Shown one piece after another: positions 1 to 6,371 of a DNA stretch of 7,677 nucleotides. Below the pieces are notes generated by a model. That model did no database searches. It was not told where the DNA came from and saw nothing but the letters and a program-made list of their open reading frames with translations. The stretch is taken from the IMG/VR virus record IMGVR_UViG_2681813234_000009, positions 1 to 7,677 of that record; one strand, given 5' to 3'. The position numbers and the translations under genes were made by a program. The number at the start of each line of letters is the position of its first letter. Within the stretch, counting starts at the first letter, position 1. This DNA comes from a virus. Lineage: Duplodnaviria > Heunggongvirae > Uroviricota > Caudoviricetes.

Positions 1-426
1 TCAATGTACTGCCACAGCATTTCCTGCCGGGCCACCACGGTTCATCTGATTGAAACCGGCGATTGCCACTGCGACAAAATCATCAGCGTCTCTCACCAGT
101 CGTTCCCGCGTCTCCACCAACTCCCGAAAATAGACTGAACTGTGGCTGCGCATCCGGGCCACCAGCAGAGGTGGCATTGCTTTTTCGATCGCTGGTAACA
201 ACGCCTGAATTTTTTCAACCGCATCAGTGGTGTCTTTCTCCACCCAGCGGAAAATTTTCTGGGTATTACGAGCCAGGGCTTCTGGATGGCTGTCGTCGTA
301 CAGTTCCGGGGACGTCATTCCCAGTTCGAAATAAGCCCTGGTTATCTTGGCCGCCGGAACTTTTTCACCATCCGGACGCGCCCAGGCATTCATAGCCATG
401 CGGATGTGTTCATGCTTGATTTTCAT
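1..426 (-). CDS. CII-like phage regulatory protein (YdaT / CP76-type), 141 aa
   Basis: Complete ORF on the minus strand; stop codon is revcomp of nt 1-3 (tca). Lies directly downstream of the Cro-like gene with an ATGA start/stop overlap, the classic cro-cII arrangement. The N-terminus MKIKHEHI matches my recollection of YdaT-type proteins; family assignment is from memory, not a search. Confidence 0.55.
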   Translation of the reverse strand: MKIKHEHIRMAMNAWARPDGEKVPAAKITRAYFELGMTSPELYDDSHPEALARNTQKIFRWVEKDTTDAVEKIQALLPAIEKAMPPLLVARMRSHSSVYFRELVETRERLVRDADDFVAVAIAGFNQMNRGGPAGNAVAVH

Positions 427-650
427 GAATCATTCTTTCCTTCGTTCAAGGTGTTATCCTTCTTTTTGTAAAGTTCTGGGTTCAAAGATAATTTTCCCTT
501 GGAGTATGCGGCAGCTTCCGCGGCCCTCCCCTTGGGAACTATTTCACCAGGACGTTTGCGCCACATGTATATAGCTTCACGGGTTATCCCATAAAAATCG
601 GCAACTCTCTGAACAGAGCCAAAAAACTGGACAAGTTCATCAACTCGCAT
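423..650 (-). CDS. Cro-like HTH transcriptional regulator (YdaS/DicC-type), 75 aa
   Basis: Small basic protein with an HTH-like segment (VADFYGITREAIYMWRK). Strong SD AGGAGG 5 nt upstream of the ATG on the minus strand (plus-strand 651-660 ttcaccctcc). Divergent from the CI-like repressor across an operator-rich intergenic region. Confidence 0.7.
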   Translation of the reverse strand: MRVDELVQFFGSVQRVADFYGITREAIYMWRKRPGEIVPKGRAAEAAAYSKGKLSLNPELYKKKDNTLNEGKNDS

Positions 651-742
651 TTCACCCTCCTAAAACTAAGTATTTTTAGATTAAAGGATAATTTTTTTTA
701 GGTCAATGCAATCTAAAATAATTTATATTCAATTCACGGGAG
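651..742. promoter_or_regulatory. Divergent promoter/operator region between cro-like and cI-like genes (OR analog)
   Basis: 92 bp AT-rich intergenic region between divergent regulators. Contains a 20 bp imperfect palindrome CTAAAACTAAGTATTTTTAG (660-679, 16/20 symmetric) and a second inverted pair TTTTAG(695-700)...CTAAAA(713-718). Individual -10/-35 elements were not confidently resolved. Confidence 0.55.
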
Positions 743-1393
743 ATGATGATGGAAAGCCTTGGCATTAGGCTTAAGAGACTCAGAAAAGACAAGGGACTGA
801 CCCAAGTCGAACTGGGCAAGCTTTCTGGCGTAACAGGGGTAACTATAGGGTACTGGGAGAAAGACCTAAACGAACCCGGTAGCAAAGCTCTTAGTAAATT
901 AGCCCAAGCACTAGGAACTACTGAGTCCTATCTCCTATATGGAGTATCGTCTACTGAACCTACCCTTGTGCAGAACAATTCAGGCACCCAAATCCCCTAT
1001 CTTTCATGGGGGGAAGCAATTTCTTTCCTAATTTTAGAAGGAGAGAAAACTATGGGAAATGCCGACAGAATCACCACATTCTTTGACGTCAAGGAGGGGG
1101 ATTTTGCCGTTTCAATGCCTGATGACACTATGCACAACCCATCAGGGTCGCCAAGCATTCCGGTTGGTGCCACAGTGATCATGAGGCCTAGAGAAAAATA
1201 TAAAAATGGTAGTATCGTCGCTGTAATAGTCCCAGATCCGCTTACAAACGAACCATCTATGACTATAAAAAAATTAGTCATCGACGGAAAACTCGTGTAT
1301 TTAAGCCCCCTCAATCCTCGCTATCAATCGTCCTTACTGACACCTGAATGTAAAATTGTTGCTGTAGCAAAAGGTGTGCAGTTCAGCCTATAG
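743..1393 (+). CDS. CI-like prophage repressor, N-terminal HTH (XRE-type) plus C-terminal S24 (LexA/CI-like) peptidase domain, 216 aa
   Basis: N-terminus LKRLRKDKGLTQVELGKLSGVTGVTIGYWE is a typical HTH. C-terminal region aligns by eye to the lambda CI/LexA C-terminal domain (AVSMPDD Ser motif, NGSIVAV, TIKKL Lys motif, LSPLNP). Three consecutive ATGs at 743/746/749; GGGAG at 738-742 gives best spacing for the third ATG (749). Confidence 0.85.
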   Translation: MMMESLGIRLKRLRKDKGLTQVELGKLSGVTGVTIGYWEKDLNEPGSKALSKLAQALGTTESYLLYGVSSTEPTLVQNNSGTQIPYLSWGEAISFLILEGEKTMGNADRITTFFDVKEGDFAVSMPDDTMHNPSGSPSIPVGATVIMRPREKYKNGSIVAVIVPDPLTNEPSMTIKKLVIDGKLVYLSPLNPRYQSSLLTPECKIVAVAKGVQFSL

Positions 1394-2286: not shown

Positions 2287-2733
2287 CTAACTACAAAGAA
2301 ATCGCATCAATTTAGATTTTGTGGGCAGCTTCTCTTGTTGTTCGATGGAAACGCCTATTTTGATCTGTGTTTTTAAGATCGCAATATCTTTAAGTGATGA
2401 CCAAATATGAACATCCGTTTTTTCCAGAATTTTTAACTGCATTTTCAATTCAGAATCAGAATATTTTTCTGCATCATCAAAAAGCTGCAAATATTCTGCG
2501 GATTTTCTCATGGCGTTACCTGACTTTTGTCCGAATCCATAAATCGTTTGGACGGTTGCGATCACAACAATAAAAACGCCAGAAATTTCCGGAATGAATC
2601 CGCCAATGACAGATGAACCGAGGATAATACTCACCACTGAGAGAAGTTTATCGAGACGACCAGTTGCTACCGAAAATAGTTGCTCAAGAAAATAGCCATA
2701 TAAAATTCTGTCAAGAATATCATCCCGGTCCAT
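2287..2733 (-). CDS. Small membrane protein with two predicted transmembrane helices, 148 aa; function unknown (candidate exclusion/abortive-infection effector)
   Basis: Minus-strand ORF with AGGTGA 6 nt upstream of the ATG. Two hydrophobic helices (LLSVVSIILGSSVIGGFI and GVFIVVIATVQTIYGF) separated by a short PEIS turn, then a roughly 80-aa charged helical C-terminus. Strongly AT-rich versus flanking phage genes and opposite in orientation to the surrounding operon. Confidence 0.65.
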   Translation of the reverse strand: MDRDDILDRILYGYFLEQLFSVATGRLDKLLSVVSIILGSSVIGGFIPEISGVFIVVIATVQTIYGFGQKSGNAMRKSAEYLQLFDDAEKYSDSELKMQLKILEKTDVHIWSSLKDIAILKTQIKIGVSIEQQEKLPTKSKLMRFLCS

Positions 2734-3194
2734 ACATCATCACCTGCTTGTTTGGTTGTTGCTGTTCCCCCTCTCCTCCGAAGGAGCTGGAGATGGTTTT
2801 GGTCGAATGTTTTTCTCTGGTATGTGATCCCAGACTGTTTTATGTGTCGAATTGCCACCACCTGCTTGTGCTCTTTGCTCTGTCATATGATTTCCTTGGA
2901 TCGTTGGGGATATCCAGATTATACAGATTTCTTGTCGTTGGGGAATGACAGGAACCACCTCGCCTGACGTGGTTAAAAGCAGGCACACAACACGAAAGCG
3001 CACGGCGAAGTCATTTCTCCCTCTGTTGCGTGTCGCCGGTATCTTCGACCGTGCGCTTCCGGTTGTGGCACTCCGCGAAATGGCGCGGCGGTAAGTATGG
3101 CGGGGTTATCCTTACCCCCACTGGTAGCACCGGGTTGTCAGGTTGACCATACGCCTGAGTGACAACCCCGCCACAACATCTCCATGTTGAGGCT

Positions 3195-3249
3195 TGTGTG
3201 AGACCTTTGGCGGCATCAGTTTAATTGCTGGCTGATGTCCGCCCTTTTT
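3195..3249 (+). ncRNA. dicF: DicF-like small RNA (3' end defined by intrinsic terminator); 5' end approximate
   Basis: Terminator stem GGCGGCATCAG(3209-3219) / CTGATG(T)CCGCC(3232-3243), 11 bp with one bulge, then CTTTTT (3244-3249). Positioned immediately upstream of dicB as in Qin. Sequence and architecture resemble my recollection of E. coli DicF, but the 5' part differs. Confidence 0.5.
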
Positions 3250-3253
3250 AAAG

Positions 3254-3413
3254 TGAATTTTGTGATGCGGTGAATGCGGCTAAGCGCACGCGGAACAGTT
3301 AAAAAGCGATTAGTTCCCCCGTATCGGGGGTTTATGGGTTTCCCTGTATCCGGCGTTAATTGTTAACTGGTTAACGTCACCTGGAGGCACCAGGCACCGC
3401 ATCACAAAATTCA
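3254..3413. repeat. 19 bp perfect inverted repeat pair flanking about 120 nt of the dicB leader
   Basis: tgaattttgtgatgcggtg (3254-3272) is the exact reverse complement of caccgcatcacaaaattca (3395-3413). Enclosed region holds the hairpin CCCCCgtatcGGGGG and GTTAAC-tg-GTTAAC. The right arm ends 17 nt before the dicB ATG. Confidence 0.7.
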
Positions 3414-3430
3414 TTGTTGAGGATGCGATA

Positions 3431-3613
3431 ATGGAAACGTTATTACCAAACGTCAATACGTCTGAAGGTTGTTTTGAAATTGGTGTCAGAATCAGTAACC
3501 CTGTATTTACTGAAGATGCCATTAACAAGAGAAAACACGAACGGGAGCTATTAAATCAAATATGCATTGTTTCAATGCTGGCCCGTTTACGCCTGATGCA
3601 AAAAGGACGCTGA
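3431..3613 (+). CDS. dicB: Cell division inhibitor DicB, 60 aa
   Basis: METLLPNVNTSEGCFEIGVRISNPVFTEDAINKRKHERELLNQICIVSMLARLRLMQKGR closely matches my recollection of E. coli Qin DicB. GAGGA RBS upstream. Preceded by the DicF-like element, the same order as in Qin. Confidence 0.9.
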   Translation: METLLPNVNTSEGCFEIGVRISNPVFTEDAINKRKHERELLNQICIVSMLARLRLMQKGR

Positions 3614-3615
3614 CA

Positions 3616-3819
3616 ATGAATACAGTATTTGCACTCGTTCTGACAGTTTTTCTTAATACAGGCGAGCCAGTCGATCTTGTTATTGGTATACATGACTCAA
3701 TGAAAGAATGCATGGCTGCCGCAGCGGAACAGAAAATTCCCGGCAACTGTTATCCGGTTGATAAAGTTATTCACATGGACAATAACGAAATCCCGGCAGG
3801 ACTTAAAACAGCACCGTAA
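3616..3819 (+). CDS. ydfD: YdfD-like small membrane/lysis protein, 67 aa
   Basis: ATG at 3616, 2 nt after the dicB stop. MNTVFALVLTVFLNTGEPVDLVIGIHDSMKECMAAAAEQKIPGNCYPVDKVIH... has a hydrophobic N-terminal helix and matches my recollection of Qin YdfD. The longer track ORF from 3562 overlaps dicB and is unlikely. Confidence 0.8.
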   Translation: MNTVFALVLTVFLNTGEPVDLVIGIHDSMKECMAAAAEQKIPGNCYPVDKVIHMDNNEIPAGLKTAP

Positions 3820-3899: not shown

Positions 3900-6371
3900 A
3901 TGAGTAAAGTCTTTATTTGCGCCGCCATTCCGGACGAACAGGCAATAAAGGAAGAAGGTGCAGTCGCTGTAGCCACTGCCATTGAAGCCGGCGACGAACG
4001 CCGCGCCCGAGCCAAATTTACCTGGCAATTCCTGGAGCAATATCCGGCTGCTCAGGACTGCGCTTATAAATTTCTTGTTTGCGAGGATAAACCCGGCATG
4101 CCCCGCCCTGCCATCGACTCCTGGGATACCGAATATATGCAGGAAAACTGCTGGGATGAGGAATCCGCTTCCTTTATTCCGGTCGAACCAGAATCCGATC
4201 CGATGAACGTCAATTTTGACAAGCTGTCCCCTGAAGTACAGAACGCGGTCCTGGTTAAGTTCGACACATGTGAAAACATCACCGTTGATATGGTTATTAG
4301 CGCACAGGAATTGTTGCAGGAAGACATGGCAACATTCGACGGACATATCGTTGAAGCGTTGATGAAAATGCCAGAAGTTAACGCCATGTATCCGGAGCTT
4401 AAGTTGCACGCCATTGGGTGGGTTAAGCATAAATGTATTCCTGGTGCTAAATGGCCCGAAATTCAGGCAGAGATGCGCATCTGGAAAAAACGTCGCGAAG
4501 GTGAACGCAAGGAAACCGGAAAATACACGTCTGTTGTTGATCTCGCCCGCGCCAGAGCCAATCAACAGTACACTGACAATTCAACAGGAAAAATCAGCCC
4601 GGTCATTGCTGCCACTCATCGCGAATACAAGCAGACATGGAAAACACTGGATGACGAACTGGCCTACGCTCTCTGGCCTGGTGATGTGGATGCCGGAAAC
4701 ATTGACGGCAGCATCCATCGCTGGGCAAAAAATGAAGTTATCGACAACGACCGCGAAGACTGGAAGCGTATCTCGGCATCAATGCGCAAACAGCCTGATG
4801 CCCTTCGCTACGACCGACAGACTATTTTTGGCCTTGTCCGTGAACGTCCGATCGACATTCACAAAGACCCTGTGGCACTGAACAAATACATTACTGAATA
4901 CCTGACTACAAAGGGCGTGTTTGAAGATGAAGGAACAAATCAGAGCGCAACTGATACTCTCTCGTCGCCAGTACCAGAAACTGATGCAGTGGAAACGGCA
5001 ATTCCGGACAACGAAAAAACCGAATGCAAAGTTGAAGTCGAACCATCTGTAGAGCGTGAGGGGCCGTTCTACTTCCTCTTCACAGATAAGGATGGCGAAA
5101 AATATGGTCGCGCAAACAAACTTTCTGGTCTGAATAAGGCGCTGACTGCAGGGGCTACTGAAATCACGAAAGAAGAATATTTTGCCCGTAAAAACGGTAC
5201 ATACTCAGGTTCACAACAAAATACTGGTGCATCTGACACGACCGCACAACCAGAGCCGGTAAAAGTTACCGCTGACGAAGTAAACAAAATTATGCAGGCA
5301 GCCAATATCAGCCAGCCTGACGCCGATAAGTTGCTTGCTGTATCACGTGGTGAATTTGTTGCAGGGATTAGCGACCCGAATGATCCGAAATGGGTGAAGG
5401 GGATTGAAACCCGCGATTCAGTGAATCAGAACCAGCAAGAAACGGAACAGAACGACCAGAAAGCGGAACAAAACAGCCCAAATGCGTTACAAAACGAGCC
5501 AGAAACGAAACAACCTGAGCCAGTAGCGCAACAGGAAGCGGAAAAAGTCTGCACCGCCTGCGGTCAGACCGGCGGCGGCAACTGCCCTGATTGTGGTGCG
5601 GTGATGGGCGACGCAACATACCAAGAAACATTCGATGACAAGAACCAGGTTGAAGTTCAGGAAGACGATTCGGAGAAAATGGAAGGCGCTGAACATCCAC
5701 ACAAAGAGAATGCTGGCAGCGCTCAGGATCACGCCAGCGATAGTGAAACTGGCGAGACGGCAGATCCCTTAATTACGGTGAACGGTCATCACGTTATCAC
5801 ATCCACCAGCAGGACGTGTGACCATCTAATGATCGACCTTGAAACCATGGGAAAAAATCCTGATGCCCCGATTATCTCAATAGGTGCAATATTTTTCGAT
5901 CCGCAAACCGGAGATATGGGACCGGAATTTAGTAAGACTATCGATCTGGAAACTGCTGGCGGAGTCATTGATCGGGACACCATTAAATGGTGGCTTAAGC
6001 AATCACGCGAAGCGCAATCTGCCATTATGACCGATGAAATCCCGTTAGATGATGCACTGTTACAATTGCGGGAATTTATCGACGAAAACTCCGGTGAATT
6101 TTTTGTTCAGGTCTGGGGAAATGGAGCCAACTTCGACAACACGATTTTGCGCCGTTCATACGAACGGCAGGGGATCCCCTGCCCGTGGCGTTACTACAAC
6201 GATCGCGATGTACGCACAATCGTTGAGCTGGGGAAAGCCATAGACTTCGATGCCAGAACGGCTATTCCATTCGAAGGTGAGCGCCATAATGCACTTGATG
6301 ACGCCCGTTACCAGGCAAAATACGTTTCAGCAATCTGGCAAAAACTGATCCCGAATCCGGTTGATTTTTAA
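3900..6371 (+). CDS. ydfE: Large YdfE-like prophage protein, 823 aa: N-terminal YdfE-homologous region, low-complexity Q/E/N-rich linker, CxxC-x7-CxxC motif, C-terminal DEDDh-type 3'-5' exonuclease domain
   Basis: Uninterrupted 2.47 kb ORF with GAGG upstream. N-terminus MSKVFICAAIPDEQAIKEEGAVAVA... matches my recollection of K-12 YdfE. C-terminus carries DEDDh motifs: D646-x-E648 (MIDLETMG), N-FD (GNGANFDNT) and H796-x4-D801 (HNALDDARY). Cys551/554/562/565 form a CxxC-x7-CxxC motif. Confidence 0.85.
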   Translation: MSKVFICAAIPDEQAIKEEGAVAVATAIEAGDERRARAKFTWQFLEQYPAAQDCAYKFLVCEDKPGMPRPAIDSWDTEYMQENCWDEESASFIPVEPESDPMNVNFDKLSPEVQNAVLVKFDTCENITVDMVISAQELLQEDMATFDGHIVEALMKMPEVNAMYPELKLHAIGWVKHKCIPGAKWPEIQAEMRIWKKRREGERKETGKYTSVVDLARARANQQYTDNSTGKISPVIAATHREYKQTWKTLDDELAYALWPGDVDAGNIDGSIHRWAKNEVIDNDREDWKRISASMRKQPDALRYDRQTIFGLVRERPIDIHKDPVALNKYITEYLTTKGVFEDEGTNQSATDTLSSPVPETDAVETAIPDNEKTECKVEVEPSVEREGPFYFLFTDKDGEKYGRANKLSGLNKALTAGATEITKEEYFARKNGTYSGSQQNTGASDTTAQPEPVKVTADEVNKIMQAANISQPDADKLLAVSRGEFVAGISDPNDPKWVKGIETRDSVNQNQQETEQNDQKAEQNSPNALQNEPETKQPEPVAQQEAEKVCTACGQTGGGNCPDCGAVMGDATYQETFDDKNQVEVQEDDSEKMEGAEHPHKENAGSAQDHASDSETGETADPLITVNGHHVITSTSRTCDHLMIDLETMGKNPDAPIISIGAIFFDPQTGDMGPEFSKTIDLETAGGVIDRDTIKWWLKQSREAQSAIMTDEIPLDDALLQLREFIDENSGEFFVQVWGNGANFDNTILRRSYERQGIPCPWRYYNDRDVRTIVELGKAIDFDARTAIPFEGERHNALDDARYQAKYVSAIWQKLIPNPVDF

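Follow-up and report, generated by a model that had tools for sequence, protein, structure and literature searches.

The window, that is, the whole 7,677-nt stretch of DNA analyzed here, carries at positions 3194 to 3249 of its plus strand an element that, judged from its sequence, is a true DicF homolog and a member of the family by descent. Its divergence from the K-12 allele is local and falls in both K-12 pairing segments, whereas scaffold and flanks stay ~95% identical. We give a probability of roughly 60% to the reading that it is a divergent natural allele, hereafter class B, which would be processed like K-12 DicF, would have lost the canonical targets, and would present candidate seeds for other targets. 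The change is larger than the preliminary description had proposed, since it is not confined to the 5' region: both pairing regions differ, and what has changed in the loop and 3' strand matters at least as much as what has changed in the 5' arm. DicF is a textbook prophage sRNA, and its repression of ftsZ with filamentation, its metabolic targets, and its control of EHEC virulence were worked out on the K-12-type sequence. If expressed, class B would mean that ~2% of complete E. coli genomes have a DicF-family RNA with different pairing surfaces, in a few strains as the sole copy, and that conclusions drawn for "DicF" are not transferable to class-B strains. Class B is rare and offers a putative case, clean and testable, of seed replacement in a classic prophage sRNA; two seed regions rewritten within a ~95%-identical locus make it a compact natural system for the evolution of sRNA specificity on mobile elements.

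The window forms the early-left part of a prophage of the lambdoid (Qin/Rac-like) type, in which ORFs were named after the RefSeq annotation of near-identical prophages. It contains a cro-like ORF (423 to 650, minus strand), a cI/LexA-type repressor of 216 aa (743 to 1393), a DUF1391/ydfA-like ORF (1589 to 1822), and a hypothetical ORF of 148 aa (2287 to 2733, minus strand), followed by the dicF-dicB region, a DUF1482/ydfD-like ORF listed after dicB, an exonuclease of 823 aa (3900 to 6371), and, listed after the exonuclease, an excisionase-like ORF and then an integrase. The 148-aa ORF, annotated as a hypothetical protein in strain 0-4, sits between the ydfA-like genes and the dicF leader and is antisense to the presumed operon transcript, which would need to extend across it to yield DicF. 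The immunity module is mosaic. When window 423 to 1393 (the cro-like ORF and the 216-aa cI/LexA-family repressor) was compared with positions 1355 to 2251 of locus L001, strains TK3896, UTAK-5, W12-1, and 0-4, whose prophages are elsewhere 99.5% identical, were found to have RacR/YdaS/YdaT at this module, while EC42405 and A35 have the LexA-family version in common with the window (98.2%). Over its full length, the window was matched by none of the complete genomes in the collection. On the minus strand of the AT-rich segment 2410 to 2572, weak Rfam matches to snoR12 (26.9 bits, E = 0.11) and the Rev39 5' UTR (14.4 bits, E = 0.86) fall far under the thresholds and are almost certainly chance matches.

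Upstream of DicF, a conserved leader (3057 to 3170, plus strand) is the equivalent of the main part of the 190-nt DicF precursor that RNase III generates in K-12; the 5' end of the K-12 species would lie ~137 nt upstream of the mature 5' end, which maps to approximately window position 3057. Outside a variable stretch of 20 nt, the tip patch (3109 to 3128; 10/20 identical), the leader has 94 to 95% identity to K-12, and its fold is not significantly more stable than those of shuffled sequences (z = -1.3). Immediately 5' of DicF lies a hypervariable patch (3171 to 3193, plus strand) that matches K-12 at 8 of 23 positions, compared with 95.4% in the flanks (Fisher p = 1e-12), and holds a small hairpin, CAACAU-CUCC-AUGUUG, at 3174 to 3189. 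The mature 5' end is presumed to arise by RNase E cleavage at the 3' edge of this patch, a position placed by homology. The 5' arm that follows (3194 to 3208, plus strand) comprises UUGUGUGAGACC and an invariant UUU, is predicted to be single-stranded (unpaired probability at least 0.8), and is a candidate seed region; the string quoted earlier for the diverged 5' region, ggcttgtgtgagacc, is located at 3191 to 3205. The arm leads into the class-B hairpin (3209 to 3243, plus strand), with 13 bp, one bulged U, and an 8-nt loop: the 5' strand GGCGG-CAUCAGUU occupies 3209 to 3221, the loop UAAUUGCU 3222 to 3229, and the 3' strand GGCUGAUG 3230 to 3237, followed by the bulged U at 3238 and CCGCC at 3239 to 3243. 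An intrinsic terminator tail of C3244 and UUUUU (3245 to 3249), the same in all alleles, completes the element and, by analogy with K-12 DicF (PMC5861419), would also serve as the Hfq-binding 3' end. A 59-nt stretch covering the element folds at -23.2 kcal/mol (z = -3.4), with none of 200 shuffles equally stable, and a terminator scan picks out the DicF site.

Downstream, the dicF-dicB spacer, which is the dicB leader, forms a conserved structured element related to Rfam STnc100 (3253 to 3414, plus strand). The 184-nt segment that holds it (3250 to 3433) folds at -76.5 kcal/mol (z = -5.8) into a multi-branch structure, whose closing helix of ~20 bp (3253 to 3272 with 3395 to 3414) stops just 5' of the dicB Shine-Dalgarno sequence. 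Apart from one spacer patch (3306 to 3340; 9/35 identical), the spacer has 95 to 97% identity to K-12. The cell-division inhibitor gene dicB (3431 to 3613, plus strand; an intact ORF of 60 aa in the same operon) starts 181 nt downstream of the U-tract, at about the same spacing as in K-12, and is 94.3% identical in nucleotides to K-12 dicB, with 52 of 58 third positions identical. DicB is annotated in genomes identical to the window over 3100 to 3450, a segment that includes the start of dicB.

With a search pattern built around the stem bases that do not vary, 120 loci were found in IMG/VR, and these fall into classes: class A, the dominant K-12 type; class B, with the hairpin GGCGGCAUCAGUUU[A/C/U]AUUGCUGGCUGAUG[U/C]CCGCC; and class C, with arms CU[A/G/U]UGUGUAGUC on a canonical-type hairpin. 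The Rfam DicF covariance model (RF00039) matched window 3195 to 3244 on the plus strand over its full length (model positions 1 to 52) with E = 1.3e-7. The Rfam check suggested earlier thus gave a significant E-value and, at 45.4 bits, a score under the curated gathering score of 48. By the same model, K-12 DicF reached 76.7 bits, class C 60.9, and the Salmonella homolog 60.6, with the class-B and other divergent alleles sampled at 34 to 45. The homology claim does not depend on the model alone, because the flanking blocks are identical to the K-12 Qin dicF locus at 272 of 285 positions (95.4%) and because leader, DicF, structured spacer, and dicB follow one another in the same order in both. 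The element occupies the orthologous position in a dicBF-type operon, between the conserved leader and the structured spacer with dicB, and in the predicted fold has the DicF architecture (nucleotides 1 to 15 unpaired, a 13-bp hairpin, and a U5 tail in an RNA of ~53 nt). The placement of a DicF-like hairpin and U-tract upstream of dicB was therefore confirmed by fold, covariance model, and spacing. In the computed duplexes, complementarity to the ftsZ ribosome-binding site through the loop and 3' half was roughly halved, as was that to xylR through the 5' arm and to pykA and manX through the 3' half. The window allele hence falls short of the curated score of the family and, by these calculations, of its defining ftsZ antisense complementarity, and annotation based on the Rfam gathering threshold would miss class-B alleles.

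Compared with DicF of the K-12 Qin prophage (RF00039, b1574), which occupies the same genomic slot with flanks ~95% identical, the window has in common the invariant UUUGGCGG-AUCAG 5' stem strand, the CCGCCC-U5 end, and the overall length. In contrast, the helix of the K-12 hairpin (7 + 4 bp) contains an internal loop and is capped by a loop of 11 nt, where the window has a continuous 13-bp helix and an 8-nt loop. Canonical dicF has no ncRNA feature in the RefSeq/PGAP annotation of the K-12 derivative BW25113 (3299 to 3867 of locus L133, from NZ_CP009273.1), where the locus tags leave a gap from RS08235 to RS08245, and DicF of every class checked was unannotated in the PGAP genomes examined. 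The missing RNA annotation of class B in RefSeq was accordingly withdrawn as informative, since class C, above the cutoff, and canonical BW25113 dicF are equally unannotated.

Alignment to K-12 bore out the earlier view that the 5' region has diverged, and showed that the base-pairing regions are not identical to canonical DicF. The 5' arm (3194 to 3205) is identical to the K-12 arm UUUCUGGUGACG at 6 of 12 positions, so that the other 6 differ. While the 5' strand of the hairpin is 16/17 identical, the loop and 3' strand are identical at only 10/18 positions (8/18 differ), and the middle of the helix closes in a different register; calling the hairpin DicF thus holds for its architecture and not for its sequence. 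Against conserved blocks 94 to 97% identical to K-12, arm plus loop and 3' strand differ at 14 of 30 positions, a divergence well beyond the 4.6% of the flanks (Fisher p = 2e-9) and the ~10% of dicB third positions (binomial p = 5e-7). Among the changes, the anti-SD CUCCG of K-12 has become UUGC and K-12 UGCUCUG has become UGAUGU, replacing the UGC-CUG block for ftsZ pairing. The 56-nt sRNA folds at -21.0 kcal/mol in the window vs. -15.9 kcal/mol in K-12, i.e., 5 kcal/mol more stably. Counting compensatory pairs would say little for this hairpin, since the stem core is invariant and the K-12-type and class-B hairpins use different registers.

In K-12, DicF uses its 3' region to pair with pykA and the ribosome-binding site of ftsZ, and its 5' end to pair with xylR (PMC5069750); the 3' end also pairs inside the manX coding region, with a footprint of G150-C167, equivalent to +35 to +52 given a 115-nt UTR (PMC5861419). 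Our target tests covered these four known targets, with energies taken at homologous sites. As a positive control, duplex and accessibility calculations recovered the published K-12 sites on ftsZ (-28 to -1), xylR (+9 to +20), pykA (-18 to +1), and manX (+35 to +53), the last in agreement with the footprint. Hybridization energies fell from -27.9 kcal/mol for K-12, where the DicF-ftsZ duplex comprises 21 bp, to -15.0 kcal/mol for the window at ftsZ, from -22.3 to -9.9 at pykA, from -35.1 to -16.5 at manX, and from -20.3 to -10.4 at xylR, such that approximately half of the K-12 hybridization energy is left at the four sites. Class C, unlike the window, retains hybridization to ftsZ (-26.6 kcal/mol), pykA (-20.8), and manX (-28.1), and stands at -6.8 for xylR. 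Accessibility-corrected scores of the window were -4.3 to -8.8, within the non-target null of 16 unrelated translation-initiation regions (-6.0 +/- 2.0, minimum -9.3) and comparable to shuffled-seed controls (-4.4 +/- 2.4), whereas K-12 DicF scored -12.5 to -13.9 on xylR, pykA, and manX. The proposal that the divergence alters targeting therefore stands for xylR, whose pairing by the 5' arm is predicted to be lost (-4.3 vs. -12.9 after correction). It does not stand for ftsZ and pykA as targets of the 5' region, because K-12 engages ftsZ, pykA, and manX with the loop and 3' half (PMC5069750, PMC5861419), as our calculations reproduced. For ftsZ, the best corrected score of the window (-4.7) lies in the null, but the validated K-12 pair itself nets only -8.2, not separable from the null, because the hairpin must open. 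Since net energy is thus not decisive for ftsZ, the case for lost ftsZ control consists of the lost base pairs and the stabler hairpin. Taken together, the pairing calculations indicate that the window allele probably no longer silences ftsZ or the other known targets of DicF.

K-12 DicF is released by cleavage of a polycistronic transcript made from the DicA-repressed promoter; RNase III yields a 190-nt and RNase E a 53-nt species, and no internal promoter was found (bioRxiv 10.1101/2023.04.14.536235). We infer the same biogenesis for the window allele from the 94 to 95% conservation of the precursor region (~3057 to 3193) outside its variable patches, the intact UUU, hairpin, and U5, and the lack of a nearby plus-strand promoter, no sigma-70-like promoter having been found on that strand in 2600 to 3700. 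Under our preferred reading of a processed but retargeted class-B RNA, transcription would begin at a repressor-controlled operon promoter, within a polycistronic RNA; an RNase III cut would release a precursor of ~190 nt, RNase E would trim it to an RNA of ~51 to 56 nt, and the 3' end would be set by the RNA's own intrinsic terminator with its U-tail. The product would consist of a very stable stem with a loop of 8 nt and a free 5' arm of 15 nt, with the ftsZ, pykA, and manX pairings of the 3' half and the xylR pairing of the 5' arm predicted to be lost; the 3' strand would also be less available, because the class-B hairpin is more stable. The class-B RNA is thus most likely not an ftsZ antisense inhibitor, division inhibition in this prophage would rest on intact DicB, and the arm UUGUGUGAGACC, perhaps together with the 8-nt loop, may act as a candidate seed for a different target set.

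The class-B hairpin hardly varies, although it is joined to six or more distinct 5' arms and occurs in two downstream contexts, its downstream neighbor being either dicB or the IsrK and C4 RNAs. Of 5,426 complete E. coli genomes, ~100 have the class-B hairpin and 16 have the full window allele; a dicF-dicB region of any form is present in 4,721 genomes, and the complete E. coli genomes gave ~11,000 places from which dicF loci can be drawn. In at least one carrier strain, UTAK-5, the window-type region is the sole dicF-dicB region; strains 0-4, 1303, and TK3896 are further natural carriers. Other class-B alleles (e.g., L116, L118, L033, L088, L113, and the E. coli BS-01 locus L132) share the same or nearly the same hairpin and score 34 to 43 bits with the DicF model, all under the Rfam threshold, but differ in their arms (UGUUGAUUACCU, UUGAUUUGUACC, UUGAUUGGUACC, CUGUGUGUAGUC, and GGCAGUGGUACC), which vary widely and include indels, among them deletions, of 10 to 12 nt. 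The window's arm was found in seven contigs across all of IMG/VR, each with an identical hairpin. One further locus, L140, considered as the same arm in an unrelated context, was rejected as a chance 20-base match, being part of an ORF for a phage portal protein and without an Rfam match. The class-B hairpin was found in none of the 50,697 deposited phage genomes in INPHARED, so class B may sit only in defective prophages, and in none of 185,579 species-representative genomes. Searching with the general pattern gave convincing matches in E. coli and Salmonella only, and the pattern of the Salmonella arm had no match in IMG/VR. The published conservation analysis of DicF took only copies >99% identical (PMC5069750). 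Our full-text search, of incomplete coverage and thus liable to have missed an earlier account, returned no description of natural DicF sequence classes.

The window's arm (UGUGUGAGACC) belongs to a family of related arms that also includes those of class C (UGUGUAGUC) and of the Salmonella enterica homolog L130 (UGUGUGAGAG), and all three have a C at stem position 21. Class C (e.g., L100), which occurs in 92 complete genomes of E. coli, among them some of O157:H7, O55:H7, and O111:H2, and the Salmonella homolog still have the canonical loop and a 3' strand that contains the anti-SD ACUCC, score above threshold (60.6 to 60.9 bits), and have an upstream flank unrelated to those of the window and K-12. 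Nevertheless, the window and Salmonella have the arm core GUGUGAGA in common, and class C has the related UGUGUAG; recurrence of this arm type despite unrelated upstream flanks argues that it is maintained and is not random debris. The wide variation of arms among class-B alleles could equally mean that the arm is unconstrained. The Salmonella homolog is located in strain s1 (CP191473.1; 3644 to 3695 of the locus, minus strand), where a canonical-type hairpin follows the arm UGUUGUGUGAGAGUUGGG, which includes GUGUGAGA, and the flank on the upstream side is like that of class C in E. coli and unlike that of K-12.

A broader and more tentative interpretation, possible but one we hold with less than even confidence, is that DicF is a modular scaffold. 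An invariant UUUGGCGG-AUCAG...CCGCCC-U5 frame would hold the arm and the loop plus 3' strand as two interchangeable seed cassettes, which prophages would shuffle and diversify much faster than the surroundings, and class B would be a regulator retargeted from ftsZ, pykA, manX, and xylR to other host or rival-phage targets. If so, each prophage would reprogram its host in its own way.

The alternative that fares best, though we consider it unlikely, is a decayed DicF that acts in cis only, its hairpin serving to limit read-through into dicB as a processing element and a terminator or attenuator, while the former seeds drift or are scrambled. Loss of all four validated pairings fits such decay, as do the very different class-B 5' arms with their indels of 10 to 12 nt and the absence of class B from deposited viable phage genomes; moreover, with the changes in the 3' strand an internal loop gives way to a continuous helix of 13 bp (-21.0 vs. 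-15.9 kcal/mol), as selection for termination only would favor. However, arm and loop have diverged at several times the near-neutral rate of dicB third positions (~10%), so simple drift is insufficient, and the loop and 3' strand of class B are almost invariant over different arms and contexts. Drift also accounts poorly for the arm core GUGUGAGA in the different background of the Salmonella homolog, and for the retention of the whole module of UUU, hairpin, and U-tail together with the precursor leader.

It is improbable that the window allele is a functional equivalent of K-12 DicF, with ftsZ still repressed through an alternative register or with help from Hfq and the sequence differences silent. 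Some complementarity to the ftsZ leader does persist (CCGCC/GGCG, AGUUU/AAACU, and 6 bp between arm nucleotides 1 to 6 and GCACAA), the arm UUGAUUUGUACC of another class-B allele matches ftsZ -18 to -12 by 7 bp, and net-energy prediction discriminates ftsZ poorly even with K-12 DicF. Yet neither the anti-SD CUCCG nor the UGC-CUG block is left, the drop in ftsZ hybridization from -27.9 to -15.0 kcal/mol is accompanied by a rise of ~5 kcal/mol in the cost of opening the hairpin, and the best window-ftsZ score (-4.7) is weaker than the null mean. In K-12, ftsZ repression is abolished by mutations of the 3' pairing region (DicF9) and weakened by DicF23 (PMC5069750).

P1 and P7 C4 RNAs have allele-specific recognition sequences that set specificity types. 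By this precedent, arm or loop might pair with the RNA's own operon transcript, e.g., the dicB leader, to control dicB translation in cis, the allele classes being specificity types; C4 (RF01695) of the phage P1/P7 immI operon is likewise a small processed RNA, encoded in an operon of a temperate phage ahead of a gene for a cell-division inhibitor. DicF-like hairpins lie directly 5' of IsrK and C4 RNAs in related loci, four discrete variable patches alternate with conserved blocks along the window's locus, and by eye the loop matches AGCGAUUAG in the spacer patch over 9 bp, including 2 G-U. This highly improbable reading was rejected because a swap test of 30 alleles was flat, with cognate flanks no better than non-cognate ones in all four comparisons of arm or loop with upstream or downstream flanks (e.g., -13.48 vs. 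-13.44), and because the 9-bp loop-spacer match is broken in L033 (same spacer, loop C30), while the same hairpin occurs with unrelated spacer patches among alleles. The C4 model had no match in the window, which has no sequence similarity to C4 and gave no evidence of a matched cis target; unlike C4, K-12 DicF acts in trans on host mRNAs.

Beyond DicF itself, the spacer (3256 to 3408, plus strand) gave an STnc100 match of 35.8 bits, under the gathering score of 47. Sub-threshold STnc100 matches (34 to 44 bits) also lie 3' of DicF in K-12 and most other alleles tested, including L002 (2933 to 3142), L100, L088, L116, L118, L033, and L054. The Salmonella sRNA family STnc100 thus appears to correspond to the RNA directly 3' of DicF-type hairpins. 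In three related prophage contigs (L033, 4732 to 5215; L054, 894 to 1359; and L113, 4834 to 5318), the DicF-like hairpin precedes an STnc100-like element, after which IsrK and a C4 antisense RNA (an immI-type region) take the place of dicB; in L113 the STnc100-like element was not detected.

The dicB leader also contains an invariant AACGUCACCUGGA block (window 3373 to 3385, plus strand), present in all aligned alleles, whose motif is that of the validated xylR site. The arms of the window and of other class-B alleles have no complementarity to this block. The K-12-type arm CUGGUGACGUU is complementary to it over 9 perfect bp plus 3 (-15.7 kcal/mol), which in class A could reflect pairing within the precursor or in cis.
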